A stretch of DNA of 32,664 nt from contig DNUI01000085.1 in the NCBI GenBank assembly GCA_003508565.1, positions 1 through 32,664 of the forward strand. The letters run 5' to 3'. Positions within the stretch are counted from its first letter, which is position 1. The number at the start of each line of letters is the position of its first letter. Source of the stretch: Syntrophaceae bacterium. Its GTDB lineage: Bacteria; Desulfobacterota; Syntrophia; Syntrophales; UBA2185. Made by a program: the position numbers and the translations under genes. Shown in pieces: positions 7,259 to 21,782 of the stretch. Under the pieces are notes generated by a model. That model was not told the DNA's origin. It did not search any database and saw only the letters and a list, made by a program, of their open reading frames with translations.

Positions 7259-7723
7259 TTATCTTCTCCAGCCCCAGCCGGCCCAGACGGGAACGCCGGA
7301 GGCGTCTCTGAGGACAAGAACATTATCGCCCTTTTTCACCTCAGCAGCAAGCACGACTGGTTTGCCCGCAATGGTCGTGCGAGCTCCCTTGATTTCAACT
7401 TTGTCGCCCTTGCCAATTTTCGTATCGAGACGTTCCAGGTACCAGCTCGGTCCGAGGTGGACGGTGACCGTTTCCTTCTCCGTTTTGACCACGAGGGCAA
7501 TCCCCTGATTCATCCGCTTCATGGGAACGGTCTGTTCCAGTCCGATCACTTCACCTGAAAAAGTTTCGAGATTGGCAGGGTTATACATCCCCTGGTAAGG
7601 GGTACCCATGCCCCAGCCGCCGCTTCCTCGCCCTCCCCACTTTCCGGGCCCTGCAAGAGCCAAAGAAGCGGTTAAAAGAAACATCATAACGATCATTAAA
7701 CCAGCAATCCTTTTTGTTTTCAT
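7259..7723 (-). CDS. exported Gly/Trp/Met-rich OB-fold-like protein; paralogue of 2625..3149
   Basis: Signal peptide MKTKRIAGLMIVMMFLLTASLALA, followed by GGRGSGGWGMGTPYQGMY. The core is shared with 2625..3149. C-terminus is WAGWGWRR. Good RBS GAGGAAAGGA. Confidence 0.7.
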   Translation of the reverse strand: MKTKRIAGLMIVMMFLLTASLALAGPGKWGGRGSGGWGMGTPYQGMYNPANLETFSGEVIGLEQTVPMKRMNQGIALVVKTEKETVTVHLGPSWYLERLDTKIGKGDKVEIKGARTTIAGKPVVLAAEVKKGDNVLVLRDASGVPVWAGWGWRR

Positions 7724-7776: not shown

Positions 7777-8259
7777 TTAATAACCTCTCATGCCCATGCC
7801 GCCATGGCCTCTCATCTCCTTGCCGTAACCATAGCTCCGGCCCGGTCTGTATGCATTTATTTGCGCCTGTGCCTGCTGCTCCGGGGTCAGAACCTTCGTG
7901 GATTCCAGACGAAAAGTCGTTCCCTTTTCATACAGTTTGTCCCTTAAGGTCTGCAGCTCCTTCTGCACCGCCAGGATCTTCTTTTGATCAGGTGTCCGCT
8001 CCAGCCACAGGAGCCTCATTTCGCCCCTCTTGCTGTACATCTGATCTTGGAGGGGTTTAATGTCGCGCAGATGAGCCTCCCGCAACGTGTTCAGTTTCGT
8101 GACCTGTTCCGCATTCAAATTCAAACCGGGTGCGGTTGTAAGGTCATAATACCCCCCACCGGAATGTCCGCCCCCCCAGCCTCTACGGGCTTCTGCGGGG
8201 GACATTGCCAAGCTTGCCGCCAGGGCAATCACCGCCATTACTGTAATCATTTTTTTCAT
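7777..8259 (-). CDS. CpxP/Spy/ZraP-family periplasmic chaperone / metal-stress protein
   Basis: Signal peptide present. Two LTxxQ-type motifs (LNAEQVTKL, LTPEQQAQAQ) lie in a helical core. Gly/His/Met-rich ends are GWGGGHSGGGYY and GHGGMGMRGY. Confidence 0.8.
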   Translation of the reverse strand: MKKMITVMAVIALAASLAMSPAEARRGWGGGHSGGGYYDLTTAPGLNLNAEQVTKLNTLREAHLRDIKPLQDQMYSKRGEMRLLWLERTPDQKKILAVQKELQTLRDKLYEKGTTFRLESTKVLTPEQQAQAQINAYRPGRSYGYGKEMRGHGGMGMRGY

Positions 8260-8300: not shown

Positions 8301-8316
8301 AGCAAGAGACATACCA
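8301..8316 (-). promoter_or_regulatory. sigma-54 (-24/-12) promoter for the ZraP-like gene
   Basis: The minus strand reads TTGGTATGTCTCTTGCTGT. GG and GC are spaced exactly as in the TGGCACG-N4-TTGCW consensus. It lies about 42 nt upstream of ATG 8259. Confidence 0.7.
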
Positions 8317-8400
8317 ATGATGATTAATTTCTATAAGCCATTTATATTATTAAGATATATGAATGTTGATGATAACTATTAAATTTGAATTGAATTACTA

Positions 8401-8453
8401 TGTGGATATATAGTATCCAATTGAAGGTATCCACATGGCTTAAAAGTATCCAC
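8401..8453. promoter_or_regulatory. cluster of GTATCCA(C) repeats, probable enhancer (UAS) for the 8301 sigma-54 promoter
   Basis: TGTGGATA (8401) and TATCCACA (8428) form an inverted repeat. Direct copies GTATCCA occur at 8413 and 8446. The cluster is 85-150 bp upstream of the -24/-12 element in an AT-rich spacer. Confidence 0.5.
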
Positions 8454-8573
8454 CCCATCATCATAATTGTTGGTGGTGGCAAAACGCTATGAATAAATAT
8501 GGAAAATATTTTTTGTGTTGTGAAGTCAGTTTTTAGAGATGAGATTGAACGTTTCCATGCCTTTTTCGTGGGT

Positions 8574-8715
8574 TCATGTCGTTGATGAAGTCTTTTGCCC
8601 TGTCCCCTCTCAGATACTCAGCCAGCCTGGAAAGTTCCTCTACAAGGTATTTTGACCGCTATTCGACTCATGTGAGAAATGTTCCGTCAATCCGACTCCG
8701 GTCATAATGCGGAGT
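8574..8715 (-). pseudogene. decayed 3' fragment of a rhodanese gene (copy of 10812..10950)
   Basis: About 140 nt align by eye at roughly 75% identity to the 3' end of the rhodanese gene. In that frame it reads HYDRSRIDGTFLT*VE*RSKYLVEELSRLAEYLRGDRAKDFINDM, with two in-frame stops and no 5' part. Confidence 0.7.
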
Positions 8716-8747: not shown

Positions 8748-9131
8748 TCAATTCCGTCCAGCGGATTTATCCTCGATGCGCCGTTTGATGTCTTGTTTTA
8801 TCCTTACCTTCTCTGCTTCTTCGTAGGTCAGTTCGGAGGATTTCTTCACACCGTAATCCTCCGCCATTTCCACTCGGATATCAGGTTTCCGGCCCGTGTG
8901 CTCCTCCACGATCTTTGTGCAGCACATTACCGGGCAGCCCTCGATGATTACAAAGATCTCTGCATTTTTAACCTTGTTGATGCCGGTTTCCTTGTTGATG
9001 GCTACCGCAGGCAGGCAAAGCAGGTGAAAGTCTTCATTTTCCTTCACCAGTTCAGTGGTTATCGCTCCGGCCAGTTGTCCTGTGTTGGCTGCACCATAGC
9101 AGGTGGTCATCACAATTTTGAATTTTGACAT
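8748..9131 (-). CDS. DGC-domain (putative zinc-binding, Cys-rich) protein
   Basis: 127 aa with CYGAANTGQLAG near the N-terminus, LCLPAVA, and IIEGCPVMCC in place of the family DGC motif. RBS ACAGGAG. Confidence 0.7.
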   Translation of the reverse strand: MSKFKIVMTTCYGAANTGQLAGAITTELVKENEDFHLLCLPAVAINKETGINKVKNAEIFVIIEGCPVMCCTKIVEEHTGRKPDIRVEMAEDYGVKKSSELTYEEAEKVRIKQDIKRRIEDKSAGRN

Positions 9132-9311
9132 TATTTTGCTCCTGTCATGTCATGAAATTGATCTGATCGCTTCAAACAAATATTTTCTTTTATGTGCCGT
9201 CATTCATACTTTGGAAGTTCTACACAAACTGCACTGTACACATAGATAGGGAAAACAGCACCACCACAGAAGCCAAGATGCACCGATTTAAGTTTCATAT
9301 TCCTTCCATAT

Positions 9312-9917
9312 TTACTGCTGCTGCAGTTTCTGGAGGGCGTTGATAATGTCCTCACCCCCGACAAACATTTCCATATTGTCGCCCCTCACGATCACGCAGC
9401 TTGGCGTTGCATTGACTTTATCGTACTGGAGTAAGGAGTTGAACCATTCAAAGGTTGACTTAGGATCGAAGGCGGTAAAGGGTATTTTTTTGTTCCTGAA
9501 AAGATCCTCTATTCTCTCCGCCGTTGTGATATGCTTGTTATCGGTTGCCTCAAAAAGGGTGTTCCTTACCATCATGGCATGCTCGAAGTCATTTTTCGCT
9601 TGTATAGCATACAGAAAGTATCTAGCGTACAGGCCGCTATAGCGGTAGAAGGGGGTGTCCACCATGGTCAAGGTGATGATGTTTCTCTTGACTAGATCCT
9701 TCAACACCGGTTCAACGGCAGGTTTCATCCCCCTGCAGGGAGGGCAGAAAAAATCCGTATACATGCGCACTTGGACCGCTCCAGAACCATATGTAGGAAA
9801 TGAAACATTCTGAGCCTTTACGTCTCCATGGGATACAAAGAATAAAGCGATTGTTGTGAAGAACAATGTCAATAAGGGAACTAATGTACATTTCATGCTG
9901 TTTTTACCGATTTTCAT
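9312..9917 (-). CDS. exported DsbA-like thiol:disulfide oxidoreductase (CPPC), paralogue 1
   Basis: Signal/anchor present. Active site is DFFCPPC. It shares the signature D-x-P-F/I-x4-L-YA-R/K-Y-F/Y-LYA with 10134..10763 and with the C-terminal domain of 11333..12364. The track start is TTG 9923; ATG 9917 is preferred. Confidence 0.8.
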   Translation of the reverse strand: MKIGKNSMKCTLVPLLTLFFTTIALFFVSHGDVKAQNVSFPTYGSGAVQVRMYTDFFCPPCRGMKPAVEPVLKDLVKRNIITLTMVDTPFYRYSGLYARYFLYAIQAKNDFEHAMMVRNTLFEATDNKHITTAERIEDLFRNKKIPFTAFDPKSTFEWFNSLLQYDKVNATPSCVIVRGDNMEMFVGGEDIINALQKLQQQ

Positions 9918-9935
9918 TTTCAATCTATCCTTTCT

Positions 9936-10121
9936 TCATTTGTTACCTATGCAGTCCTTCTTCCATAGACAGTCGTCGTCATTACATGTATCTTTCGTGC
10001 GAAAACACGGCGAATATCCTTCAGCTCTCTGAATATCACGAATAATGTCCTGTTTGGTGCGACCTTTTCGGGCGTCAACACCCCATCCTTCGGCGATTTT
10101 CCGAATCTCTTCCAGTTTCAT
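9936..10121 (-). CDS. 61-aa Rho_N/SAP-like helical protein with C-terminal 4-Cys motif
   Basis: Strong RBS AAGGAGGA 7 nt upstream of the ATG. The N-terminus LEEIRKIAEGWGV..KQDIIRDIQ resembles the Rho_N/SAP fold. The C-terminus reads CFRTKDTCNDDDCLWKKDC (C-x7-C-x4-C-x6-C). Confidence 0.7.
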   Translation of the reverse strand: MKLEEIRKIAEGWGVDARKGRTKQDIIRDIQRAEGYSPCFRTKDTCNDDDCLWKKDCIGNK

Positions 10122-10133
10122 TGATCATCCTCC

Positions 10134-10763
10134 TTACTTTTTCGGGTGTCCAAGCGCGGTGCGCAGTTCGGACACCCCCTTCTTGATGTTCTTATCTCCC
10201 GAATATTTCCGGATATCCGTTGAAGAATAGACAAAGACAATGTTCGGCGTCCCTCGCACCTGGTACTTCCTCACGATGTCGTTGTATTGCTTGAAAACAG
10301 GCTTCACATCGTAGGGCTTCAGGGGAACGTTTCTGGCCTTCAAGGCGTTTTCCAATTGCGGCTCCGTGATGGCGCCGATGCGCGACGCCGTATCGAACAA
10401 CACTTTTCTCGCGAGGAGCACGTCTTTATATGATTGAGAAGCATTTGCCGCATACAAAAAGTACCTGGCGTAGAGAGGGGTCAATTTATAAATGGGGAAA
10501 TCCACAAAACTCACCGTGACGCCTCCATCGGCTAACAGTTCGTGGACCTCGTTGTCTAACCAATGTTCCAGTCTCTGGCAGGGCTGGCAGAAATAGTCTG
10601 AAAATATAAGCATCTGGTATGGGCCGGAACCATAGGATGGAACGAGTGCGTTTTCAGCGCTGTGCGCCGTCATCATCGATCCTGTGAATGTGAGCGTTAT
10701 GCAAAGGCACCCAAGAAACGCTACAACCGGTAGATACAACTTTTGCAACTTTAACATAGGCAA
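10134..10763 (-). CDS. exported DsbA-like thiol:disulfide oxidoreductase (CQPC), paralogue 2
   Basis: Signal anchor LKLQKLYLPVVAFLGCLCITLTF and active site DYFCQPC, with the same family signature as paralogues 1 and 3. TTG 10763 is 6 nt after GAGG; the alternative start is ATG 10757. Confidence 0.8.
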   Translation of the reverse strand: MPMLKLQKLYLPVVAFLGCLCITLTFTGSMMTAHSAENALVPSYGSGPYQMLIFSDYFCQPCQRLEHWLDNEVHELLADGGVTVSFVDFPIYKLTPLYARYFLYAANASQSYKDVLLARKVLFDTASRIGAITEPQLENALKARNVPLKPYDVKPVFKQYNDIVRKYQVRGTPNIVFVYSSTDIRKYSGDKNIKKGVSELRTALGHPKK

Positions 10764-10799
10764 TTTAAACCTCGATCGCTTGAGAACCTTCTTGTCATC

Positions 10800-11252
10800 T
10801 TATTGTGTCATTTCATGTATGAAGTCTTTAGCCCTGTCCCCTCTCAGATAGTCGGCCAGCCCAAGAAGACCCTCGACAAGGTATTTTGACTGGTAGCCCT
10901 TCAAGGTCAGAAATGTCCGGGCAATCTCGGCCCGGTCATAGTGAGGGCACACCGTGACGATAATCTTAGACCTGTCCAGTTCTTTCAGCCTGTCAGGAAG
11001 CTCATTGAGCGGGATGTGTTTTATAAATCCGAAACTATAGACCTGATGTTCTTCCCGGAAACGAATATCGATGATCTGAACGCTCCCTTGTTTGTAAAGG
11101 TGCAGCATTTCCTGAATGCCGATTTTCATGTTTCTGCGTTCCTGATAGTCAAAAGCTTTAAGATAGTTTTCAAACGAAACGCTTTCCCCTGCGTACACCT
11201 GTGTAGTCATCAACAACAGACACAACAATGCCAGAACTCCGTTTTTCACCAT
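10800..11252 (-). CDS. exported single-domain rhodanese (sulfurtransferase)
   Basis: Signal peptide MVKNGVLALLCLLLMTTQVYAGES and active-site loop VTVCPHYDRAEIA. The track start GTG 11273 reads through the RBS GAGGAGGAAGGA, so ATG 11252 is preferred. Confidence 0.85.
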   Translation of the reverse strand: MVKNGVLALLCLLLMTTQVYAGESVSFENYLKAFDYQERRNMKIGIQEMLHLYKQGSVQIIDIRFREEHQVYSFGFIKHIPLNELPDRLKELDRSKIIVTVCPHYDRAEIARTFLTLKGYQSKYLVEGLLGLADYLRGDRAKDFIHEMTQ

Positions 11253-11332
11253 TATTCCTTCCTCCTCGAACACTCAATGTCTTTCAACAGCGGCAACGCA
11301 CAATGGCGCCTTGGATGCCGCCACACTGGCAA

Positions 11333-12364
11333 TTACTTTTTCCCAGCACCTTTATACATTTTCAACGTTGCCAACCCGTCCAATATCTCGCCAGTTCCAA
11401 TGTATTTTCTTGAATAGGATGGAAAATACCGGATGATACATGTAGGAGTTGCGTCGATTCGATTTTGCTTGATACTATTGTTCAACGTCTGAAAGACCGG
11501 TTTCTCATCATATTCCGTCCAGGTGATCTTCTGTTCTTTCAGATACTTCACGAGAAGCTCTCTTGAGTGAATGTTTTGCTCCTGTGCCGCATGGAAGAGG
11601 TGGCTGCGAATCCGTAGAACCTCCCGTGCATCGGCACCGGCATGGACGGCATAGAGATAATACTTTGCATATAACGGGGTTGCTTTGGAAAAAGGAACAT
11701 CGATGAAGCTTATCTTTACATTGCCGTTGGCAAGCAACTCCTTGACCACTGGTTCAAGCGATGCATCAAGAATCCGGCAGGGTGGACAGAAATAGTCGGA
11801 AAAGAAAAACACCTCGTAAGAACCTTTGCCGAGAGAGGGGGTACGGGAGCCCTCTTGCCCGTACGCGGGTGTAACGGAACCGGAAAAGGTGAACAAAATA
11901 CCGAGATATCCCAGAAGGGCGATAATCAGTAGCGGAACCTTTTGTAATTTTAACATAGGCAAATCAACCTCCCCAAGAAAATAGAGCCACATCTTCCGCC
12001 TGTTTTCGCGCCAGGCGGCAGGGGCTTCATAGTTTATGATAAACGCCGCGAGGACCGTGACGGCAAAGGCGAGACAAAACGGACAATATATGTCGTTCTG
12101 CAATTGGAATGTAAATAAATGAATCTCGACGCCGATACCTGCCGCGAGAAGAATGAGGACAAATGGAATTTGCCGGAAGGCGGCAAATGCGATGACCACA
12201 AGCATATATGCAATGCCAACCCATTTCAGATCAATCCCCAAGATATCCCCCTGCAAATAACTGCACGACGTATCGCAGACCTCGTAAAATATCATGAGGG
12301 CGATGCCGGTGACAGCAAGAATAATCGTGATTATGTGTTTGTACTTTTTAACATGATTCATCAT
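11333..12364 (-). CDS. fusion protein: 4-TM VKOR/DsbB-like quinone-linked thiol oxidase domain + TM5 + DsbA-like CPPC domain (paralogue 3)
   Basis: Loop Cys pair C-DTS-C-S after TM1, CPFC at the start of TM4, a basic cytoplasmic linker, then TM5 and a DsbA-like domain with DYFCPPC. This is the topology known for bacterial VKOR-thioredoxin fusions. The VKOR assignment is tentative because loop 1 is short. Confidence 0.7.
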   Translation of the reverse strand: MMNHVKKYKHIITIILAVTGIALMIFYEVCDTSCSYLQGDILGIDLKWVGIAYMLVVIAFAAFRQIPFVLILLAAGIGVEIHLFTFQLQNDIYCPFCLAFAVTVLAAFIINYEAPAAWRENRRKMWLYFLGEVDLPMLKLQKVPLLIIALLGYLGILFTFSGSVTPAYGQEGSRTPSLGKGSYEVFFFSDYFCPPCRILDASLEPVVKELLANGNVKISFIDVPFSKATPLYAKYYLYAVHAGADAREVLRIRSHLFHAAQEQNIHSRELLVKYLKEQKITWTEYDEKPVFQTLNNSIKQNRIDATPTCIIRYFPSYSRKYIGTGEILDGLATLKMYKGAGKK

Positions 12365-12428
12365 TTCACACATATGCCTCCTGTTTCGTTGAGCTCCTTT
12401 TACCCTCTAAACTTTATTGATCCAAATG

Positions 12429-13220
12429 TTAAATGGCAACGCCGAAATAAATAAGAATATATTTCAGGGACACATAAAGAAAGAGCAATCCGAAAAGGAA
12501 CTTCAGTGCGGCGGGTTTGAACTTCGCCACAAGCTTGGCCCCATAGATGGCGCCGATCAGGGCGCCGACGCCAAGGGTTATTGCCACAGGAATGTTCACC
12601 ACGTTCTGATAGAATTTGAAAATAGCGCCGACCAGAGCCATCCAGACGAAAGAGGCCATGGACGTGCCGATGGCGAGCTTCATCGGCGCTTTGAACAGAT
12701 AGATGAACGAGGGCACCAGGGCATACCCGCCGCCGAGGCCCACGATACCAGTGAGAAAACCGATGGCCGATCCCAGGACACCTTTCTGGAAAGACGAACC
12801 CGGCATTCCTCCCCCGGCCGCCGGCTGCGGCAGGGGGTTCTTTCCTAACAGGCCCTTGCCGCCCTCGTAGAGCATCCGCAGGGTGACCAGCAGGAAGGCG
12901 ATGCCGATGATCAGATCGATCAGATCCCCGTAAGGCATGACGTAGGCGAAAACGACTGAGCCGATGATCACTCCCAAAACACCGCTCGCCCCCGTGACAT
13001 AGGCGGTCTGTTTGTCCACGTTGCCCATCCGGATGTGCTGAACAGCTCCGGATCCCGCCGTGAACACGACGGCCGTTAGTGTCGTTCCCACTGCAAAGGC
13101 TGGGTCGAAATCAAAACCGAAACGGATGACCGGCATCATCAGAGCACAGCCGCCCGTTCCTAAAAGTCCACCGACTACTCCGGCAGCAATACCAACCACA
13201 AAATAAATGAGAAAACTCAA
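12429..13220 (-). CDS. TauE/SafE (TSUP) family anion transporter
   Basis: 263 aa and about 8 TMs, with an internal repeat carrying GLLGTGGCALMMP and GIVGLGGGYALVP. TTG start 5 nt after AAGGAGGTG. TTGA overlap with the upstream gene. Confidence 0.9.
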   Translation of the reverse strand: MSFLIYFVVGIAAGVVGGLLGTGGCALMMPVIRFGFDFDPAFAVGTTLTAVVFTAGSGAVQHIRMGNVDKQTAYVTGASGVLGVIIGSVVFAYVMPYGDLIDLIIGIAFLLVTLRMLYEGGKGLLGKNPLPQPAAGGGMPGSSFQKGVLGSAIGFLTGIVGLGGGYALVPSFIYLFKAPMKLAIGTSMASFVWMALVGAIFKFYQNVVNIPVAITLGVGALIGAIYGAKLVAKFKPAALKFLFGLLFLYVSLKYILIYFGVAI

Positions 13221-13540
13221 TGTTCCACCTCCTTCAGGATAATTGATGTATTCAAATGTCTTCCAAGAATCTCCATGGCGTCTCCCATTTGATTATCTGT
13301 AACCCGGACACCCTTTCTTTCAAACCATCGCCTCGTCTCTCCGTCAATGCCGCCGCAAAGGAGAACGTCCGGAGCAAGAGCAAGAAGCTTGGCCTTTCTT
13401 AGGGATGGCGAACGGTCCTCCAAGGGGATCTTCAAAATAGAACATACAGTTCCGCCATCGACCTGGACCAGGAGAAGCTCCGGGGCGGTAAAAAAGTGAG
13501 GGGATACCCGGTTCTCAAAAAGAGGTATGGCCACCTTCAT
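13217..13540 (-). CDS. NifX/NifB-like (dinitrogenase FeMo-cofactor-binding fold) small protein
   Basis: MKVAIPLFENRVSPHF...LLCGGIDGETRRWFERKGVRV matches the Nitro_FeMo-Co domain pattern. ATG 13540 is preceded by AGGAG; the track start 13558 is TTG. Confidence 0.7.
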   Translation of the reverse strand: MKVAIPLFENRVSPHFFTAPELLLVQVDGGTVCSILKIPLEDRSPSLRKAKLLALAPDVLLCGGIDGETRRWFERKGVRVTDNQMGDAMEILGRHLNTSIILKEVEH

Positions 13541-13590
13541 GACATGGTGCTCCTGCAAAGTTTCGGTATAGAATTATTTGAGTATGACAT

Positions 13591-13606
13591 CGCAAGGTGC
13601 GTGCCA
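13591..13606 (-). promoter_or_regulatory. sigma-54 (-24/-12) promoter of the NifX-like/TauE/VKOR-DsbA/rhodanese operon
   Basis: The minus strand reads GTGGCACGCACCTTGCGAT, a near-perfect TGGCACG-N4-TTGC. It lies about 50 nt upstream of ATG 13540. Confidence 0.8.
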
Positions 13607-13689
13607 CGGACACACAAATCTCAGTAAATGTGTTTCCCCTTAAAATCCAGTATCTTATTGTTTGCATCGCATGGCATTTTCTGTTTGTA

Positions 13690-13707
13690 TGTTTCATTTA
13701 TGAAACA
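13690..13707. promoter_or_regulatory. enhancer-binding-protein site 1, perfect palindrome TGTTTCA-N4-TGAAACA
   Basis: TGTTTCATTTATGAAACA, about 90 bp upstream of the -24 element. Confidence 0.6.
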
Positions 13708-13720
13708 GTCCCGGAACTGG

Positions 13721-13738
13721 TGTTTCAGATGTGAAACA
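13721..13738. promoter_or_regulatory. enhancer-binding-protein site 2, perfect palindrome TGTTTCA-N4-TGAAACA
   Basis: TGTTTCAGATGTGAAACA. Its centre is 31 bp (about 3 helical turns) from site 1, the classic tandem bEBP UAS layout. Confidence 0.6.
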
Positions 13739-13830: not shown

Positions 13831-13851
13831 ATAGTTGACATATACAACTAT
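13831..13851. promoter_or_regulatory. inverted repeat ATAGTTG-N7-CAACTAT, candidate MarR operator overlapping a TTGACA -35 box
   Basis: ATAGTTGACATATACAACTAT lies 44 nt upstream of the marR-type ATG. It contains the GTTGAC half-site that recurs at 14381..14408. Confidence 0.45.
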
Positions 13852-13894
13852 ATATGAAAGAAAGGCGTCACCAATTTCCAAGGAGGATGGATTA

Positions 13895-14347
13895 ATGGAC
13901 GAACAGGCCAGGCAGCTTGCCGGGAGCATTGAAAAAATTATGTATTATTTTGGTACGCAAAGCATGGAGGGAGAGTGTTGTGAAAATATTTCTCTCGGCG
14001 AATTTTTTGCCCTTCGCGCCGTATTGCATCGGAATATCTGTACCATGCAGGATATTGCAAAAAGCGCCGTGGTCACTAAAAGCGGTGCGACCCGCATTGT
14101 CAGTCGTCTGGAGGATAAGGGTCTCGCGCATCGCGAACAGGACCAGAAAGATGGGAGGATCTGTTGTGTGACGTTGACGGATGACGGCAAATCGCTCCTG
14201 AATCGTATCGAGGATCAACTCATGAATAAGATACAGACGATGCTGGTGGCGATGGACCCGGACATGCGCGAAATTCTGATGATTACCCTTCATGCATTTT
14301 GTCAGTCCGCAGACCGACAAATGACAAAATGGGAGAAACTGTCCTAA
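13895..14347 (+). CDS. MarR family transcriptional regulator
   Basis: Winged-helix core ICTMQDIAKSAVVTKSGATRIVSRLEDKGLAHREQDQKDGR. ATG 13895 is 7 nt after AAGGAGGA; the track start TTG 13835 lies in the promoter region. Confidence 0.9.
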   Translation: MDEQARQLAGSIEKIMYYFGTQSMEGECCENISLGEFFALRAVLHRNICTMQDIAKSAVVTKSGATRIVSRLEDKGLAHREQDQKDGRICCVTLTDDGKSLLNRIEDQLMNKIQTMLVAMDPDMREILMITLHAFCQSADRQMTKWEKLS

Positions 14348-14380
14348 ACGGATGGGCTTATTCAACGATAGATTCAGTCA

Positions 14381-14408
14381 GTCAACAAATGTTGAAATAG
14401 TCAACTAT
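14381..14408. promoter_or_regulatory. array of alternating GTCAAC/GTTGA half-sites, candidate second MarR operator
   Basis: GTCAACAAATGTTGAAATAGTCAACTAT contains the palindromes TCAACA-AA-TGTTGA and ATAGT-CA-ACTAT. It lies about 100 nt upstream of the permease start. Confidence 0.4.
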
Positions 14409-14505
14409 CATTACATAAACCAAATGAACTGCCTCGCTGCAAGGAGCGAAGTATTGTCTCTCGAAGAAATAGAGACCTCATTTAGAAGCATAGGAGGACT
14501 TACAG

Positions 14506-15618
14506 GTGTTTCAAATGAATAATTTTGTCACTGCCGGTCAATTTTTTATAGTGATTGCCGGGGAACTGATTCTGATTTTTGTGGCCGTTTCCTTTCTCAT
14601 CGGGGTCCTGACGGAATATCTCCCTCCATCCCGCATCAGGGATTTTCTTTCCAACAAGATTACGTCGGTACAATACCTGTTGGGTGCTGGCTTGGGCGCC
14701 CTCACGCCTTTCTGCTCTTGTTCAACCGTTCCTATCACGGCAGGGTTGCTAAAGGGCGGCGTACCATTTGGCCCGATTATGGCGTTCCTTTTTTCTTCAC
14801 CAGTTCTCAATCCTGTAATTATTGCTCTTTTGCTCTCGCTCCTGGGTCTTAAAGTGACGATGGCTTATGTCGTCATTACCTTTTTTGGTTCCATGGTAAC
14901 GGCGGCTCTCCTGTCGAAACTCGGAATGGAAGGACAGGTCAAGCCCTTGATGAATTTTCAGGCAGCCTGTTGCGCGGAAGAGAAAACAAAGCCTGATGTC
15001 GGCCTCGTGATGATCCAGCCGGCTGCCACCGGCTGTTGTTCTAATGAAAGTGCTCAACCTCAGAAGTTGTCTACCTTGCCCACCTATCAAGCTCCGAGCG
15101 CCTGCGGCGCGGGGGGAGCAGAGATGATGCTTGCAAAGCTACCGGCTGAAGCGTCATGCTGCACTGTCAATTTTGATGCGAAAGACTCGGCATATGTACC
15201 TTTTAAAGAAAAGATGAAAAACGCAGCGTCGTCAGCACTTGACACGTTCAAGGGGGTGTTCTGGTATCTGCTTTTGGGAGCAGGGATCGGCGCTTTCATC
15301 TACGGATTTTTCCCGCAGGATCTGTTTGTTAGATTGGCAGGACCGGGCAATTCATGGTCTATTCCTATTGCGGCGGCCATCGGCGTACCAATGTATATCA
15401 GGGCGGAAACGGTGATTCCCATCAGTGCCGCCCTTGTGGGAAAGGGTATGGGGGTGGGAACGGTGCTCGCCCTCATCATCGGCGGTGCCGGGGCAAGTAT
15501 TCCAGAGATGATCATTCTTGGTTCCATGTTCAGGAAGAAACTGATCGCCGCTTTTATACTGAACGTTTTTCTGGTCGCAATTGCGGCAGGGTATATTGTG
15601 GATAAACTGATATATTAA
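14506..15618 (+). CDS. ArsP-family (PF03773-like, 'predicted permease') transporter with Cys-rich central loop
   Basis: Family motif LTPFCSCSTVPITAGLLKGG. The central loop carries three vicinal Cys pairs (ACCAEE, TGCCSNE, ASCCTV) plus ACGAGG. GTG start 7 nt after TAGGAGGA. Confidence 0.85.
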   Translation: MFQMNNFVTAGQFFIVIAGELILIFVAVSFLIGVLTEYLPPSRIRDFLSNKITSVQYLLGAGLGALTPFCSCSTVPITAGLLKGGVPFGPIMAFLFSSPVLNPVIIALLLSLLGLKVTMAYVVITFFGSMVTAALLSKLGMEGQVKPLMNFQAACCAEEKTKPDVGLVMIQPAATGCCSNESAQPQKLSTLPTYQAPSACGAGGAEMMLAKLPAEASCCTVNFDAKDSAYVPFKEKMKNAASSALDTFKGVFWYLLLGAGIGAFIYGFFPQDLFVRLAGPGNSWSIPIAAAIGVPMYIRAETVIPISAALVGKGMGVGTVLALIIGGAGASIPEMIILGSMFRKKLIAAFILNVFLVAIAAGYIVDKLIY

Positions 15619-15684: not shown

Positions 15685-17070
15685 CTATTGCTTAAGGAGT
15701 TTCCTGCTTTTCCTCCATAGTGTCGTGCGGCTGATGCCGAGCTGACGGGCCGTTTTCATGCGGTGGCCGCCTTGCTCTCTAAGCGCCTCCTGGATAAGCT
15801 TCAGTTCCGAAGACACCAAGGGTGTAGGTGTTGAAGAATTCGTGAAATCATGGTTCGTCTTTTCGAGAAAATCGTAGGGTAGGTGCTTTTCTTCAATCAG
15901 CACCCCCCTGCACAGGACACAGGCATGTTCCAGGATATTTTCCAGTTCCCGGATGTTGCCGGGAAACGAATAATTCATGAGGCGGGCCATTACTTCTGTG
16001 GAAACCCCCGCAATATGTTTGCCTTTGAGCGCTTTCAGGCGAGCGATAAAGTTTTCCGTCAGAAGGGGAATGTCTTCTTTCCGTTCGCAGAGTGGCGGAA
16101 TCTCGATCTTAATAATGTTGAGGCGGTAGTAAAGATCCTCACGGAAAAGGCCGTCCCGGACCATTGCGGTTATATCTCTATGGGTGGCCGCCATGATACG
16201 TACGTCGACCTTTACGGGCTCAACTCCGCCTAATGGAATGAATATTTTCTCCTCCAGAACCCGCAAAAACTTGACCTGGAGAGAGGGAGAGGTATCACCG
16301 ATTTCGTCGAGAAAAAGAGTTCCACCATCAGCCAGAGAGAATCGACCAGGCTTGTTCTTCTTCGCATCCGTAAAGGCCCCCTGGACGTAACCGAACAGTT
16401 CCGATTCCAGAAGGGTGTCAGGAATGGAACCGCAATTGACCTTGATGAAGGGTCTTTCTTTCCGCGGGCTCAGATCATGGACCGCCCGGGCCAAGAGACC
16501 CTTTCCCGAACCGCTGGGCCCCTGGATCAGGAGGGTGCTGTCGCTTTCAGCCACGTCTGGCAGGATGTCAAAAATCTCTTGCATTCGTGGATTTTTGCTG
16601 ATCATGTCCCCCATACTGTAACGGCCCGCGACAGCCTTCCGGAGTGTCTCAATCATCGACAAATCGCGGAAGATCTCGACAGCGCCGACAACATCGCCCC
16701 GATGGTTGCGGATAAGAGCTGTGGTGACATTGACGGCAATCTCCTTTCCCGACTGGTTGATAATAACCGCGGGGTGATTGAACACCGGCTCGCCTGTCCT
16801 CAGAGTTCGCTCGAGGGGACAGTTGCTCTGGCAGGTATTGGAACGGAGAATGTCGAAGCAAAATTGGTTCACTGCTTCTTGAAAAGTGAATCCCGTGATC
16901 TCTTCAGCGGCCCGGTTAAAATATGTGTTGATCCGACGTTGAAGATCCACTGTAAAGACGCCGTCCGTCATGCTCTCCAAAATGGCGCAGCAAGGCAAGC
17001 TATCATCACTGCTTCGGCATGATGAGGTGTTTACAGAACCGGCATCATTTTTACTGCTTTTCCTTTTCAT
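15685..17070 (-). CDS. sigma-54-dependent transcriptional activator (bEBP) with N-terminal PAS sensor and C-terminal Fis-type HTH
   Basis: AAA+ core with Walker A GPSGSGKG, the sigma-54 contact loop GAFTDA and ESELFGY. C-terminal HTH TARQLGISRTTLWRK. There is no receiver domain; the PAS region carries Cys residues. Confidence 0.95.
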   Translation of the reverse strand: MKRKSSKNDAGSVNTSSCRSSDDSLPCCAILESMTDGVFTVDLQRRINTYFNRAAEEITGFTFQEAVNQFCFDILRSNTCQSNCPLERTLRTGEPVFNHPAVIINQSGKEIAVNVTTALIRNHRGDVVGAVEIFRDLSMIETLRKAVAGRYSMGDMISKNPRMQEIFDILPDVAESDSTLLIQGPSGSGKGLLARAVHDLSPRKERPFIKVNCGSIPDTLLESELFGYVQGAFTDAKKNKPGRFSLADGGTLFLDEIGDTSPSLQVKFLRVLEEKIFIPLGGVEPVKVDVRIMAATHRDITAMVRDGLFREDLYYRLNIIKIEIPPLCERKEDIPLLTENFIARLKALKGKHIAGVSTEVMARLMNYSFPGNIRELENILEHACVLCRGVLIEEKHLPYDFLEKTNHDFTNSSTPTPLVSSELKLIQEALREQGGHRMKTARQLGISRTTLWRKSRKLLKQ

Positions 17071-17108: not shown

Positions 17109-17885
17109 CTATCCTTTCAACTTACTATACAGCCCCTGAAGTTTTGTTTGATACATGTTTCGGATGTTTTCCTCTTCCTCGCCAAGGGGTTTCACGGGGA
17201 TGAGATCCATGACATCGCTGGGGGACATGTTGGAATCGGTCATGGTTTTGAGCGTACCCTTCATCATTTTTAACAGGCTTTCTTTCACTTCATCCGGTGA
17301 CATCCCGAAGGTCTTTCCCAGTTCCTGCAACTCATAGAGCTGGAACCAGAAGTAGGTAGGCCCCATGGCGGTCAAGATAGCATACGCTTCAAGTTTTTCT
17401 TCCGCCACTTCGGGGCAGTCTCCCAGAATCTTGAACCATGACAGCATTTGTTTCTTTTCTTCCTTTGCAAATATGGCGGAGAATACGAGAGGATTGTACC
17501 CTTTATTCACCATTGATGGTGCGTTGGGAATCATCCGGACTATTCGTGAAAATCCGTCGAGGGCATTGGAAATCTTGGAGATGGAAACTTTCGGGGCCAG
17601 GGAAACGACAACCGCATCCCGGCGGAGCGTTGATTTTATTTCTCCCAGAATTCCCATGATCACCGGTGGATGGAGGGCAATAAAAACCACGTCGGCAGCA
17701 GCTGGTTTTTTAAGATCGCCTCCTGCCGCTTCAATTTTTGGGAATCGCTTTTGCAGATCTTTCAGAACATCGGCATTGGCGTCGCTGACAAACACCTTGC
17801 CGGGCCATTTCTTTTTTCGTTCCAACCCACTCAGAATGATCCTGGAGATCCTTCCGCCACCGATAAAACCGATGGATTTAAACAT
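17109..17885 (-). CDS. pyrroline-5-carboxylate reductase family NAD(P)H oxidoreductase
   Basis: Rossmann motif IGFIGGGRISR, MIPNAPSMVNKG (compare ProC MPNTP) and LTAMGPTYFW (compare GSGPAY). It diverges from housekeeping ProC at the C-terminus. Confidence 0.65.
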   Translation of the reverse strand: MFKSIGFIGGGRISRIILSGLERKKKWPGKVFVSDANADVLKDLQKRFPKIEAAGGDLKKPAAADVVFIALHPPVIMGILGEIKSTLRRDAVVVSLAPKVSISKISNALDGFSRIVRMIPNAPSMVNKGYNPLVFSAIFAKEEKKQMLSWFKILGDCPEVAEEKLEAYAILTAMGPTYFWFQLYELQELGKTFGMSPDEVKESLLKMMKGTLKTMTDSNMSPSDVMDLIPVKPLGEEEENIRNMYQTKLQGLYSKLKG

Positions 17886-17951
17886 GCGAACAAGCCTCCT
17901 TCCTTAATGTATTATGTTTTTTTACTTATCACCGAGGGGTCGTTACACTCA

Positions 17952-18659
17952 TTAGTTACCCCAAAAAGGATTCCCGATGAAGTAGATACCTAAAACAGCG
18001 ATGAGCGCCCCGGCGCCCTTGCGGAACCACAAACCCGCGCCCTGCCATGTCCGGTTTTCGATCAGTTTTCTCACCATGGCCGTTGAACTGCCCGCAATCA
18101 CGATAGGAAGGCAGTGCCCGAAGGCAAACAGCGTAATGAAAAGGATGCCCAGCCCTACCTTCTCCTGAATTGTAATAATGGCCAGAATGGGCGCGATGAA
18201 ACCGAACGTGCAGGAGCCGGACAGCACACCGTACGACAGGCCCAGTCCAAAGGCGCCCCAGAGCCCCCGCAGGTTAAGACGGTAGAGAAGGCTGCCGGAA
18301 GCGGAACATGCTTCGACCCCCATCATGCCTAATGCGACCCAGAGAAGGATCAGCCCTACCAGTATCTGCCAGTAATTCCCCACGTCGCCCAGCATCCGTC
18401 CCAGAATGACACACACGATGCCGACCAGCGCAATGGTAATAAAAAGTCCAAAGGTAAACGCAACGGAGTAGGCGCTGGCCTGCCGGGGTTCCAGTATCTG
18501 TTCCTGTCCACCCACATAGGCGACTATGAGGGGGATGGATGCAAGATGACAGGGACTGAACAGGACGCTGACCACGCCCCACAGAAAACACCCGAGGGCG
18601 GCCAGGATTGCTGCACCCATCATCCATTCGTTGATTGTCAAAAAGAAAGAATCGAACAT
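17952..18659 (-). CDS. ccdA: CcdA/DsbD-type transmembrane thiol:disulfide electron transporter
   Basis: Six TMs with the two conserved Cys contexts FSPCHLASIPL and SGSCTFGFIAPIL. ATG 18659 is preceded by GAGGGTGG; the track start is GTG 18668. Confidence 0.85.
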   Translation of the reverse strand: MFDSFFLTINEWMMGAAILAALGCFLWGVVSVLFSPCHLASIPLIVAYVGGQEQILEPRQASAYSVAFTFGLFITIALVGIVCVILGRMLGDVGNYWQILVGLILLWVALGMMGVEACSASGSLLYRLNLRGLWGAFGLGLSYGVLSGSCTFGFIAPILAIITIQEKVGLGILFITLFAFGHCLPIVIAGSSTAMVRKLIENRTWQGAGLWFRKGAGALIAVLGIYFIGNPFWGN

Positions 18660-18671
18660 TATATCCACCCT

Positions 18672-19058
18672 CTACTGTACGCCCATCGTCTTGAGCTGGG
18701 CCACAATAGCCTCCTCGCTCATATACCCGATGTGGCGGCTGATTTCCCTGCCTTTTTTGTCGAAAAAGATCTGCGTAGGAATAGCCCTGACTTGGAATTG
18801 CTGTATGGCTTCCCGGTTATATCGGAGGTCGATAAAAACAATAGCGGCCTTTCCCTGGTAGCGCTTCTCTAATCTGTCCAGGATCGGCGCCATCATCTTG
18901 CAGGGAATGCAGGAGGCGGCGCCCAGGTCGACCATGGTCACCATGCCCTTGACGGGGACCTTTTTATACTCTGTGGAAGACGACGTACAAGCCGCATTGA
19001 CGAAAAAAAAGATTGTAAAGATCAATGTACCGATTAGTGTAATACGCTTTATGCTCAT
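18672..19058 (-). CDS. exported/lipid-anchored thioredoxin-family protein (CIPC)
   Basis: Signal peptide ends FVNAAC. Thioredoxin active site GAASCIPCKMMAP and cis-Pro region RAIPTQIFF. It sits immediately upstream of ccdA. Confidence 0.85.
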   Translation of the reverse strand: MSIKRITLIGTLIFTIFFFVNAACTSSSTEYKKVPVKGMVTMVDLGAASCIPCKMMAPILDRLEKRYQGKAAIVFIDLRYNREAIQQFQVRAIPTQIFFDKKGREISRHIGYMSEEAIVAQLKTMGVQ

Positions 19059-19065
19059 AAATACC

Positions 19066-19377
19066 TCAACAATCGCAAGAACCTTCGCAGCCCGCGCTCG
19101 CCTTAAGGCTCGAGGTGAGTTTAAATCCAGATCCTCCGACAGACTCGATGAAATCGACGCGTATCGGCTTTACTTCATCGAACAAAGACTTGTCAATAAG
19201 ATAATGGATGTCTCTATCCGTGAATACCAGATCTTTTTCCTGTGGCTCGTCCAGAGCCATGCCCAGAGTGGGCCCGCCTCAACCAGCCTGCAAGAGTATC
19301 CTGATTGAAAGTGGTTCTTTCTGTTTTTCCAAAAAGTTCTTGATCATGCTGCTTGCATTTTCTGTAACTTCAAACAT
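19066..19377 (-). CDS. HesB/IscA-like selenoprotein (in-frame UGA = Sec at codon 33, 19279..19281)
   Basis: The ORF track shows only the 3' 64 codons. Extending upstream gives MFEVTENASSMIKNFLEKQKEPLSIRILLQAG-U-GGPTLGMALDEPQEKD... with RBS AGGAG 7 nt before ATG 19377. The U occupies the position of the first conserved Cys of IscA (R-x-x-x-x-GC-S/G-G). The C-terminal C-x3-C-x-C stands in for the IscA CGC. Confidence 0.8.
19240..19266 (-). promoter_or_regulatory. candidate bacterial SECIS hairpin
   Basis: On the RNA, 12 nt after the UGA: CUG-GGCA-U-GGCUC-UGGAC-GAGCC-A-CAG. This gives a 6-bp upper stem, a GG-containing 5-nt apical loop about 28 nt from the UGA, and a 3-bp lower stem. Folded by eye only. 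Confidence 0.5.
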
Positions 19378-19391
19378 AAATTCTCCTGTCT

Positions 19392-20672
19392 TTAATTTTT
19401 TAATCTTTCGATTAGCGTCTCCAGATATCGCGATTTCATCTGGCGGCTTGCCATCACCTGCTTGATAGGTGGCAACTTCAGGATGACGCCGAGTATTGCC
19501 GCCATCGCCCGGTGGCTCATAAGCAGTCTGTTGTCGAAGATCAGATTTTGCAGTTTTCCCCGTTCTATAGCCATGACAACTGCCCGATGGGTAGAATTGA
19601 GTGGTGTGATCACGCGTTTCGGCCTGGATTCAAGCCGGATCGCCTCGGCCGGACATTTACGAACACAGAGGCCGCAGCCGAGGCATATTTCCTCATTCAA
19701 TTTTGCCTTCTCCCGCTTTGGCAGGTGTGGATCACTCGCCGAGGCGAGGCCTATAGCCTCTACGGGACAGACCCTAACACAGCGGCCACAACCGGTACAT
19801 TCATCATCATTGACCTTGGGCAAAAAATTTGTCGTATGCACCGGATGCAGCATGCCGAAACGGCGGGCGGCGATCATGGCCTCACAGCAACAACCGCAGC
19901 AATTGCAGATGAAGTTGACCCGTTGCAGAACGTTTTCGCCAAATTGAACGAGGTTGTTTTCATAGGCCTGTCTTAGCAGATCAAGTCCCTCGGAAACGTC
20001 AATGGCGCGTGCAAATCCATGCCGGATCAGGGATGCGCCTGCATTGTTAAAGGTCATGCAGATGTCCATGGGCGCGTCGCAGGCCCGGCCGACATGCATC
20101 ATTTTGTGACGGCAGTAACACACACCGATCCCCCGGTGGGAGGCTGTGCGAATCACCTCGCTTGCCCTTTCGTAGTCGAGAACATGAAGGGCGTTCTCGG
20201 CACTCAGTGCCGGCTCGTGGATGAAAACACGTCCAAGCTGGGTCTCTCCATCAGTAAAGAGGGATTTGATGAAGTCTTCTTCAACGTTAATGTATTCGTA
20301 AAACAGTTCGCTTAACGCCTTCTGATTGATGTCGTCGCGAATTCGCATCAATGAGAACTCAAAAAACCCTGCCATGGGCGGCGGGAGGACGTACATCATT
20401 TCTCCTTCCTCTTGCATATCGAGGAGAAGCGCCTTGTCGGCAAGACGATCCAGGGTTTTTCGGGCATCTACCAGGGGGATTTTCCAGATCGCAGCGGCTT
20501 TCTTAGCGGTAAAAGGTTTGATCGGCAGCACAGAAACAAGGGCAGCTTCTCTTTCCGTGAAGAGGATGCTGAGAATTTTCTTGAGATGTGCCGACGGAGT
20601 TACACCCTGGGGAAAGCGGTTCAATCGCTCCGTCAACTCGGCATATCCGGATTTCAATGAATGGTGGGCCAT
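19392..20672 (-). CDS. Fe-S protein: N-terminal winged-helix-like region, CNCCGCCC cysteine cluster, 2x[4Fe-4S] ferredoxin domain
   Basis: FICNCCGCCCEAM, then CTGCGRCVRVCP and CLGCGLCVRKCP. ATG 20672 is preceded by GAGGAG; the track start is GTG 20684. Confidence 0.8.
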   Translation of the reverse strand: MAHHSLKSGYAELTERLNRFPQGVTPSAHLKKILSILFTEREAALVSVLPIKPFTAKKAAAIWKIPLVDARKTLDRLADKALLLDMQEEGEMMYVLPPPMAGFFEFSLMRIRDDINQKALSELFYEYINVEEDFIKSLFTDGETQLGRVFIHEPALSAENALHVLDYERASEVIRTASHRGIGVCYCRHKMMHVGRACDAPMDICMTFNNAGASLIRHGFARAIDVSEGLDLLRQAYENNLVQFGENVLQRVNFICNCCGCCCEAMIAARRFGMLHPVHTTNFLPKVNDDECTGCGRCVRVCPVEAIGLASASDPHLPKREKAKLNEEICLGCGLCVRKCPAEAIRLESRPKRVITPLNSTHRAVVMAIERGKLQNLIFDNRLLMSHRAMAAILGVILKLPPIKQVMASRQMKSRYLETLIERLKN

Positions 20673-21767: not shown

Positions 21768-21782
21768 ATAGATTCTCCCCTC

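Follow-up and report, generated by a model that had tools for sequence, protein, structure and literature searches.

Why would a bacterium of the strictly anaerobic order Syntrophales keep a sigma-54-controlled set of exported thiol-redox proteins a few kilobases from its arsenic-resistance genes? The question is raised by a stretch of 32,664 nt, contig DNUI01000085.1 of assembly GCA_003508565.1 from an uncultured Syntrophaceae bacterium (UBA2185), referred to here in its whole length as the window. A sequence-only reading had described in it an operon, here numbered g1 to g8 from the promoter, which encodes DsbA-like carriers, a VKOR- or DsbB-like membrane domain, an exported rhodanese and a TauE-type channel. 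It had taken the operon for something other than a plain housekeeping DsbAB pair, a judgement that we share. VKOR and DsbA proteins are commonly viewed as agents of general oxidative folding, and ars islands as systems of cytoplasmic reduction plus efflux. The answer we favour, tentatively and with a little less than even confidence, is that the operon is a Dsb-type periplasmic thiol-oxidation module, one that serves as an accessory to an extended arsenic/soft-metal(loid) resistance island in Smithella-like Syntrophales. What is new is a lineage-restricted VKOR-DsbA clade in ars islands with no characterised counterpart found; its anatomy is clear, and its function is read from gene context.

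An eight-gene run behind a sigma-54 promoter

Eight co-directional minus-strand open reading frames (ORFs), together spanning 8748-13558, lie downstream of a sigma-54 promoter (Table 1). The promoter is the sole exact match to TGGCACGNNNNTTGC within the window, and the relaxed pattern TGGYAYRNNNNTTGC gave 2 matches against 0.12 expected by chance, both properly sited upstream of minus-strand genes. The two activator sites upstream of it share the form TGTTTCA-N4-TGAAACA, and two such matches appeared in 0 of 100 shuffles. Centre to centre, the sites are 31 bp (about three helical turns) from each other, and the -24 GG follows the two centres at distances of ~94 and ~125 nt; on the downstream side of the promoter, an AGGAG ribosome-binding site is followed by the ATG at 13540. 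The promoter and paired palindromic enhancers reported by the sequence-only reading are present, its coordinates being accurate to within a base or two.

Relatives were sought in one-genome-per-species contigs from GTDB, and the loci found were labelled L001 onward. The window itself matched metagenome contigs of the same species (L001-L006). In the orthologous locus L009 (76% identity), both enhancers, the -24/-12 element and the ribosome-binding site are kept against a diverged background: TGTTTCAaatcTGAAACA is the counterpart of site 1, site 2 is partly kept, TGGCACAccccTTGC is the counterpart of the promoter, and ~110 nt of unrelated sequence is inserted between enhancers and promoter. Having a -24 GG and a -12 GC at canonical spacing, upstream sites and an activator gene nearby, the operon is, judged by its DNA sequence, sigma-54-dependent.

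Table 1. Positions of the operon, its control elements and other features of the window
Feature	Positions	Strand	ORF limits	Description
Activator site 1	13721-13738	-		Perfect palindrome TGTTTCAcatcTGAAACA
Activator site 2	13690-13707	-		Perfect palindrome TGTTTCAtaaaTGAAACA
Operon promoter	13592-13606	-		Sigma-54 -24/-12 promoter TGGCACGcaccTTGC
g1	13217-13540	-	13217-13558	Small cytoplasmic NifX/ORP-like protein (Nitro_FeMo-Co), likely start 13540
g2	12429-13220	-	12429-13220	TauE/TSUP anion channel or permease; Pfam TauE 153 bits
g3	11333-12373	-	11333-12373	VKOR-like domain of four transmembrane helices (4-TM), TM5, periplasmic DsbA-like domain
g4	10800-11252	-	10800-11273	Exported rhodanese; Pfam 31.9 bits vs cut-off 22.2
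g5	10134-10763	-	10134-10763	Free DsbA-like carrier, CQPC; Thioredoxin_2 (PF13098) 29 bits
g6	9936-10121	-	9936-10121	61-aa cytoplasmic SAP/Rho_N-like protein, C-x7-C-x5-C-x6-C; weak Pfam Rho_N
g7	9312-9923	-	9312-9923	Free DsbA-like carrier, CPPC; Thioredoxin_4 30.6 bits
g8	8748-9131	-	8748-9131	DGC-domain Cys-rich cytoplasmic protein, EGC variant; Pfam DGC 67 bits
Rhodanese fragment	8572-8715	-		Decayed 3' fragment of a second rhodanese gene, just downstream of g8
Inverted repeat	8400-8436			ATGTGGATA-N19-TATCCACAT
Second promoter	8302-8316	-		Sigma-54-type, TGGTATGtctcTTGC
LTXXQ gene	7777-8259	-		ZraP/LTXXQ-like protein, ~43 nt downstream of the second promoter
MamS_MamX-type gene	7259-7723	-		Exported Gly/Trp-rich protein
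MarR-ArsP pair	13835-15618	+		Divergent MarR regulator and ArsP-type permease (TPFCSCS motif), between activator gene and operon
Activator gene	15685-17070	-		Candidate cognate activator: PAS-AAA+(sigma-54)-HTH_8 enhancer-binding protein
ars cluster	17109-23648	-		ArsR-headed ars/thiol-redox cluster, ~3.5 kb from the operon
Selenoprotein candidate	19066-19377	-		HesB/IscA-like, in the ars cluster; 103 codons
Ferredoxin-domain gene	19392-20684	-		430-aa protein, between ACR3 and the selenoprotein candidate
NifU_N and HGD-D genes	23928-25761	+		Flank the ars cluster

The gaps between genes given by the sequence-only reading were reproduced when internal ATG starts are taken; the TTG start codon of g2 overlaps the TGA stop of g1, and the 180-nt gap ahead of g8 is real. 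No terminator-like or sigma-70-like site inside the run rose above chance, in a scan that is weak as evidence for or against a single transcript. An Rfam scan of the whole window gave zero matches, so no riboswitch or RNA element explains the regulation.

The full eight-gene set was found only in the window's species, and L009 has part of it (g1, g2, g3, g4 and g6), which makes the module a variable assembly rather than a fixed operon. Thus the sequence-only reading was borne out in that the components recur elsewhere, co-occurring in other genomes in variable subsets, and was not borne out in treating the eight genes as a set. The rhodanese fragment that follows g8 (tblastn E 1.7e-14, 65% identity to g4 residues 102-149) contains two in-frame stops and has its catalytic cysteine changed to threonine; it is a relic of module rearrangement.

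g3 joins a divergent VKOR-like domain to a DsbA-like carrier

The g3 protein carries a C33-x3-C37 loop and C97PFC100 in its membrane domain, followed by C196PPC199 and a Thr-cisPro in the DsbA-like domain. Its score against Pfam VKOR (PF07884) was 18.3 bits (E 0.003), below the cut-off of 27.5, with the correct part of the model aligned, and sub-threshold matches to the same model were seen in 8 of 20 close homologues. The family is small: in 1.84 billion representative proteins, the profile built on the N-terminal domain picked out only 140 clusters at 50% identity. Among the remote relatives of this domain (24-41% identity), 42 of 70 match PF07884 (E up to 0.01, best 4e-9) and 22 contain Thioredoxin_4; the matches to PF07884 support VKOR homology of g3 transitively.

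The assignment was also supported by fold comparison. Because the DsbA-like domain accounted for most of the signal when the full-length model was compared by fold, the N-terminal 168 residues were modelled separately with AlphaFold (predicted local distance difference test, pLDDT, 67). The top three Foldseek matches of this model were Synechococcus VKOR structures (4nv2, 3kp9 and 4nv6), with query-normalised TM-scores of 0.57-0.68 and probability 1.00 at E-values of only 0.02-0.06; other matches reached at most 0.38, those ranked next scoring about 0.25. Both the full-length and the N-terminal models display the VKOR-type helix pattern, and g3 has the VKOR architecture of a four-helix bundle, a cysteine pair in a periplasmic loop and a CXXC at the start of TM4. 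C33, C37 and C97-P-F-C100 are invariant in 56 g3 homologues, all six redox cysteines being invariant or nearly so, and a positive-inside reading of the charges puts the DsbA-like domain on the periplasmic side of the membrane, together with the loop pair and the CPFC site. Sequence and models together indicate that the 4-TM domain is a divergent VKOR. The VKOR-like call of the sequence-only reading therefore holds, by transitive and fold evidence and with a Pfam score below cut-off; we rejected the DsbB-like identity, for which no match was found in Pfam, in a PDB sequence search or with Foldseek.

The C-terminal domain scored 38.6 bits against Pfam Thioredoxin_4, and a profile search matched it to S. 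aureus DsbA (E 1.6e-8) and BdbD. With the whole-protein model, Foldseek returned DsbA and ScsC at probability 1.0, ScsC (4gxz) at the top, and a PDB sequence search with the full-length profile matched the DsbA-like half only. By analogy with characterised relatives, g3 would reduce quinone while oxidising its thioredoxin-fold partner. Syntrophus uses 8-methylmenaquinone (PMC8805022), so a quinone acceptor exists in Syntrophales.

The other operon proteins

Two further carriers are paralogues of g3, each with an N-terminal membrane anchor included in the match: g5 of its TM5 and DsbA-like part (41% identity) and g7 of its C-terminal part (30% identity). All three have a Thr-Pro loop and a CXXC (CPPC in g3, CQPC in g5, CPPC in g7), and show the features of the DsbA-like families (PF13462/PF01323), namely a thioredoxin fold with a helical insertion, CXXC, cis-Pro loop and export.

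The mature g4 protein has a single cysteine, placed as in rhodaneses in a six-residue active-site loop, CPHYDR. Of 11 intact orthologues, 10 keep this loop, part of a conserved CPHYDRAE motif, without change, and one (L063) has CQFSER instead; every full-length copy has a signal peptide, and relatives of g4 number 1357 clusters. A role as Cdc25/Acr2-type arsenate reductase was considered and judged unlikely, as the loop has six residues (C-x4-R), not seven.

Orthologues of g2 with 73-75% identity lie within the ars clusters of L035, L036, L045 and L059, and TauE genes are also found in L091 and L094. The g1 protein scored 25.1 bits against Pfam Nitro_FeMo-Co, just below the cut-off of 26.3, and weakly matched the MrpORP C-terminus in NCBIfam; its counterpart in L075 passes the Nitro_FeMo-Co cut-off at 33 bits, and that in L044 is 22% identical (E 8e-6). 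The family of g6 comprises ~79 clusters of 60-residue 'SAP domain' proteins in Syntrophales. A homologue follows the rhodanese gene in L009 and L011, and homologues in long contigs elsewhere stand in unrelated contexts that give no functional clue. In an alignment, g8 lacks the Cys-rich tail typical of the ars-linked DGC clade. Apart from the borderline score of g1 and that of the VKOR-like domain, the domain calls of the sequence-only reading were all confirmed in Pfam.

A candidate activator of the OrpR type

The only sigma-54 activator in the window is encoded upstream of the operon, on the same strand. Its PAS domain contains C71-x8-C80-x3-C84 plus D73, which matches the triad of D. vulgaris OrpR as a pattern, not as an alignment. 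In OrpR, C52, C61 and C65 with an acidic residue at 54 bind a redox-sensitive [4Fe-4S] cluster (PMC8359166), and the protein is active in Desulfovibrio at low redox potential, under reducing conditions, and is turned off by mild oxidation (PMC8359166). With a PAS domain bearing the triad and acidic residue, an AAA+ domain and a helix-turn-helix (HTH), the window protein fits the OrpR-type pattern.

Activator orthologues (49-54% identity) lie directly upstream of the g3 homologue in L044, L056 and L075, with the same Cys triad in L075. Between the two genes, L044 and L075 each have a NifX-like gene and a promoter of the sigma-54 type (TGGCATtgctcTTGC or TGGCATctgttTTGC). We conclude that activator, sigma-54 promoter, NifX-like gene and VKOR/DsbA gene form a conserved regulatory unit in a second lineage (L044, L056 and L075), and that the window protein is likely the regulator of the operon promoter. 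Its resemblance to OrpR suggests redox gating rather than induction by a toxicant. The published D. vulgaris OrpR palindrome, GGGCGYRTTTTGCGCCC, does not match the sites of the window, and the presumed activator sites of L044 and L075 differ again from both.

Relatives of g3 lie in arsenic-resistance islands

The search returned 280 relatives of the g3 fusion, and the best 80 of these 280 are almost all from Smithella, Syntrophaceae or Syntrophales bins. To describe their surroundings, all ORFs within 6 kb of each g3 homologue were clustered and the window proteins were searched by tblastn; counts rest on the 38 loci with at least 5 kb of flank on both sides. The most frequent neighbours were ACR3 (27/38), ArsR (26/38), an ArsP-type permease and Thioredoxin_3 (22/38 each), and a secreted thioredoxin (Trx) and DsbD_TM (20/38 each), followed by DGC (10/38), the low-molecular-weight-phosphatase type of ArsC (9/38) and rhodanese (5/38), the last of which is therefore not obligatory for g3. 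These neighbours and the g3 homologue nearly always share a strand, and the usual order is ArsR, Trx, DsbD_TM, ACR3, fusion, ArsP.

An ars hallmark gene was present at 28 of the 38 loci, the g3 homologue lying co-directionally inside ArsR/ACR3/ArsP/ArsC clusters. Among the roles offered by the sequence-only reading, sulfur or sulfite, selenium or metalloid handling, this context points to metalloid (arsenic) handling and does not favour sulfite or selenium. The parts list of the window occurs elsewhere in single ArsR-headed arrays. The array of L091/L092 reads ArsR, Thioredoxin_3, P5CR-like reductase, Trx, DsbD_TM, ArsC, ACR3, fusion, rhodanese, glutaredoxin (Grx), ArsP, a rhodanese/ZT_dimer protein, TauE and FmdE; that of L094/L095 has TauE, Trx, DsbD_TM, ArsC, Thioredoxin_3, ACR3, Grx, a free DsbA-like protein, rhodanese, ArsP and CDF, and a MamS_MamX gene farther along. 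In the window this repertoire is divided into two units, the ars cluster and the sigma-54 operon, between which lie the MarR-ArsP pair and the activator gene.

Several side observations concern these loci. At L007, 955-1419, a canonical stand-alone VKOR (PF07884, 154 aa) heads the ars cluster of a genome with a g3 orthologue, so that two VKOR-type genes occur in that island. At L090, 4840-6685, the gene next after that of a UbiA-family prenyltransferase encodes a distant relative of the VKOR-like/Trx fusion (P0161), which may connect it with the making of quinones. Between rhodanese and ArsP, L091 (9568-9943) and L092 (8297-8672) have a 36-aa Thioredoxin_3 fragment and then an 81-aa glutaredoxin-like ORF, which may be another selenoprotein or a split gene. 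In ~21 related loci (e.g. L053, 11040-11399, minus strand), the opposite strand carries, shortly after the end of the fusion gene, a conserved gene for a ~119-aa Lys/Glu-rich Rho_N/SAP-like protein.

Other features of the window

The ars cluster of the window comprises genes for ArsR, an ArsP-type permease, Thioredoxin_3, ACR3, a Fer4 protein and a HesB-like selenoprotein candidate, together with a secreted Trx, DsbD_TM and a P5CR-like reductase. Its ACR3 scored 442 bits against a cut-off of 283 and is a bona fide equivalog. The selenoprotein candidate has a single in-frame TGA (LLQAG-U-GGP), and gene callers divide it into 32- and 64-aa products. The adjacent ferredoxin-domain protein, which has an odd cysteine run, NFICNCCGCCCEAM, is found in few related loci (L012, L082). 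MarR and ArsP also occur as a pair near related islands (L019, L036, L043, L048, L054, L062 and L076).

NifU_N and HGD-D family genes flank the window's ars cluster. At L093 (9233-12467), an HGD-D gene directly follows the g3 homologue and precedes cysteine desulfurase, TusA/DsrE and Se_S_carrier genes, and a connection with sulfur or selenium trafficking may thus recur.

Downstream of the operon are genes for the ZraP/LTXXQ protein, the MamS_MamX-like protein and a CDF transporter, in which the MamS_MamX-type gene comes after the LTXXQ gene and before that of the transporter. The MamS_MamX-type family is seen again close to related ars islands (e.g. L094, 13154-13603); the domain is of the magnetosome type, although this syntroph is not magnetotactic. 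The inverted repeat before the LTXXQ gene, ~85-135 nt further upstream of the second sigma-54-type promoter, is unlike the operon palindromes in sequence, which implies a different activator. Matches to the sigma-54 consensus also precede LTXXQ genes in L013, L027, L040, L042 and L043.

A proposed role and its alternatives

As an arm of the resistance island, the thiol-oxidation module would probably be gated by redox state. The OrpR-like activator, through its PAS domain and Fe-S Cys triad, would bind the two palindromic sites and activate the sigma-54 promoter in a redox-dependent manner. By analogy with Synechococcus and Mycobacterium VKOR, the VKOR-like domain of g3 would pass electrons from its CPPC carrier to the (methyl)menaquinone pool, and the fused carrier plus its two free paralogues would oxidise periplasmic thiols. 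Among the carriers' neighbours the exported single-Cys rhodanese is the most conserved, which would make it their likeliest partner or substrate; accessory roles would fall to the TauE channel and to the cytoplasmic proteins of the NifX-like, 4-Cys and DGC types. In a habitat that is sulfidic, reducing and loaded with thiol-binding metalloids, the module would keep envelope cysteines as disulfides or persulfides, which As(III), methylarsenite or soft metals could not attack, acting beside the island's reducing arm (DsbD_TM and secreted Trx) and its efflux pumps (ACR3, ArsP and CDF). The coupling of quinone-linked oxidation to sulfane sulfur, which the sequence-only reading had put forward, is possible. 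Mutants of E. coli in dsbA and dsbB are hypersensitive to cadmium and mercury, and the Dsb-like Scs system gives copper tolerance. In P. mercurii ND132, operon C, with the order ArsR-ArsP-ArsE(PF13192)-DGC, is arsenic-induced (bioRxiv 10.1101/2022.10.17.512643).

Several points weigh against this proposal. A CPPC motif is unusual for a DsbA-type oxidase and is known from the reductase StoA of B. subtilis; the direction of electron flow in the module is assumed by analogy, and a single-Cys rhodanese is not a classical substrate of disulfide folding. The operon has no ArsR-type control and its regulator resembles a redox sensor, so the arsenic link is one of gene neighbourhood only. The MarR-ArsP pair separates the activator gene from the operon promoter, and we infer the assignment of one to the other; the DNA sites moreover differ from that of D. 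vulgaris OrpR. Ars genes are lacking at 10 of the 38 fully flanked loci, with ORP-type genes instead at L075, where DUF5320, Nitro_FeMo-Co, a MinD/Fer4 ATPase and DUF134 follow g3, and at L093, which is outside the 38, the g3 homologue lies beside sulfur/selenium-trafficking genes. Distant relatives of the VKOR-like domain in L089 and L090 are not in ars clusters; the arsenic link is specific to the Syntrophales clade.

The same proteins could be arranged as a periplasmic sulfane-sulfur generator for arsenic thiolation, an alternative that we regard as unlikely. Oxidised DsbA-like carriers would convert HS- to persulfide and hand it to the exported rhodanese, with the two electrons passing via the VKOR-like domain to menaquinone, in a thiol-relay analogue of sulfide:quinone oxidoreductase (SQR); the rhodanese persulfide would thiolate exported As(III) to thioarsenate or detoxify other thiophiles, and TauE would move the sulfur/arsenic oxyanion product. 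No gene pair is conserved more tightly than DsbA-like protein and rhodanese, be the former a VKOR fusion or a free protein (L009, L011, L019, L024, L026, L029, L032, L081, L091 and L094), g4 is exported with one cysteine in its CPHYDR loop, and TauE recurs in related islands. The S. aureus cst operon unites TauE, rhodaneses and a quinone-linked sulfide oxidase. In P. mercurii, As(III) raises the expression of a rhodanese, and a thioarsenic compound whose identity was not established is produced (bioRxiv 10.1101/2022.10.17.512643). However, rhodanese is within 6 kb at only those 5 of 38 loci, the CPHYDR loop contains an acidic residue that is not typical of thiosulfate sulfurtransferases, which bind anions, no literature report was found of a rhodanese enzymatically thiolating arsenite, and the scheme is conjectural at every step. 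A more specific version, which we consider less probable again, has the VKOR/DsbA-like carriers and exported rhodanese act as a 'sulfide:quinone oxidoreductase' working by thiol relay, in which ambient sulfide is turned into persulfide in the periplasm. This persulfide would thiolate exported arsenite or methylarsenite to less thiol-reactive thioarsenicals, and the Fe-S redox-sensing sigma-54 activator would leave the system off except at low redox potential. Were this so, arsenic detoxification would have an enzymatic step not described before, and VKOR proteins a physiological role that is new for their family.

Electron flow in the opposite sense is improbable. In a reductive or isomerase system like Scs, DsbC/G or StoA, the VKOR-like and DsbA-like proteins would keep the rhodanese and other single cysteines reduced, or would reduce periplasmic arsenate or metal-thiol adducts. 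The CPPC motif shared with StoA, the best structural match of the DsbA-like domain, which is to ScsC (4gxz) from a reducing copper-tolerance system, and the need of a single-Cys rhodanese for shielding from over-oxidation would all fit; but to our knowledge the characterised VKOR homologues all pass electrons to quinone and none from it, menaquinol is by standard potentials too weak to reduce Trx-type dithiols, and the islands already have a dedicated reducing arm in DsbD_TM and secreted Trx. A role in trafficking of ORP-type metal-sulfur clusters or selenium, with the NifX/ORP-like, DGC and 4-Cys proteins handling metal-sulfide or selenium species and the envelope proteins serving that pathway, is more doubtful still. 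The OrpR-like regulator and NifX-like first gene, the continuation of L075 into ORP-type genes, the L093 homologue next to cysteine desulfurase, TusA/DsrE and Se_S_carrier, and the HesB-like selenoprotein candidate nearby in the window are set against the minority status of ORP and selenium contexts and an operon without a gene for a MinD/Mrp ATPase or one specific to selenium; nor does ORP itself have a settled function (PMC8359166). Least probable, and in our view very much so, is a general housekeeping oxidative-folding system of Syntrophales that lies near ars genes by chance. Many bacteria without DsbB do rely on a VKOR-DsbA pair for housekeeping disulfide formation, and the family is found in most Smithella and Syntrophaceae bins. 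Against chance placement stand the consistent co-directional embedding of the gene between ACR3 and ArsP, the two copies in several genomes (HGW-12, L015 and L068; SDB_sulfate1, L035 and L075), the coexisting canonical VKOR gene in the L007 genome, and control by a dedicated sigma-54 activator.

Literature searches on VKOR or DsbA-like genes and ars clusters found no report linking them, and those on rhodanese with ars operons or thioarsenate, and on Smithella with arsenic, found no characterised counterpart, in line with what the sequence-only reading had supposed. The position of the VKOR-DsbA clade between ACR3 and ArsP across a strictly anaerobic order, accompanied by the exported rhodanese, the TauE channel and the reducing DsbD/Trx arm, suggests an unstudied envelope thiol/persulfide component of arsenic and soft-metal defence in sulfidic habitats. 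Syntrophales are key organisms in methanogenic degradation, in peat and in mercury-methylating communities, where their metalloid handling affects arsenic speciation. The locus also extends the OrpR-type Fe-S redox-sensing sigma-54 activators to a new target set, with DNA sites that can be tested.

Comparison with known systems

The closest parallel to g3 is the bacterial VKOR with its Trx- or DsbA-like partner (Synechococcus, 3KP9/4NV2; M. tuberculosis VKOR plus DsbA), which has in common with it the four-helix core, the loop Cys pair and the CXXC at the start of TM4. In Synechococcus VKOR-Trx, the best and only convincing structural match for the N-terminal domain, a fifth helix tethers a periplasmic thioredoxin-fold domain, as in g3. 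Unlike known VKORs, g3 scores below the Pfam cut-off, has a C-x3-C loop pair and is joined to a DsbA-like CPPC partner rather than a plain Trx; its clade is nearly confined to Syntrophales, sits in ars islands and is here under sigma-54 control.

The operon also resembles Scs and other metal-stress Dsb-like systems, in which periplasmic DsbA-like carriers and a membrane redox partner are dedicated to tolerance of thiophilic metals. The membrane partner in Scs, ScsB, is a DsbD-like reductant conduit, not a VKOR, and Scs has no rhodanese, TauE or ars linkage, unlike the operon and its relatives. The combination of ScsB, ScsC and ScsD is absent from the operon, whose membrane partner is VKOR-like and whose only link to Scs is the ScsC resemblance of the carrier domain.

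With extended ars operons of anaerobes, such as operon C of P. mercurii ND132, the window's island shares ACR3, ArsP, Thioredoxin_3 and DGC, but VKOR/DsbA-like proteins, exported rhodanese and TauE are not named as ars genes in that work (bioRxiv 10.1101/2022.10.17.512643). Unlike such operons, g1-g8 include no ArsR of their own, no arsenite or organoarsenical efflux pump and no arsenate reductase, and have a sigma-54 promoter instead. The regulation recalls the D. vulgaris orp system, in which a PAS-AAA+-HTH activator, OrpR, has a C-x8-C-x3-C triad with an acidic residue at +2 and acts on a sigma-54 promoter with palindromic enhancers ahead of a first gene encoding an ORP-type Nitro_FeMo-Co protein (PMC8359166). 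The operon is nevertheless not an orp operon: its site is TGTTTCA-N4-TGAAACA, not that of OrpR, its targets are mostly envelope thiol-redox proteins, and the activator gene is separated from it by MarR-ArsP.

The S. aureus cst operon (CstR, TauE, CstA, CstB and SQR) combines TauE, rhodanese-type sulfurtransferases and quinone-linked oxidation. The operon of the window likewise has a TauE channel, a rhodanese-type protein and a proposed quinone-linked oxidation; unlike cst, it contains no SQR, persulfide dioxygenase or CstR. The chemistry of cst is cytoplasmic and flavoenzyme-based, whereas that proposed for the operon would take place in the periplasm by a thiol relay.

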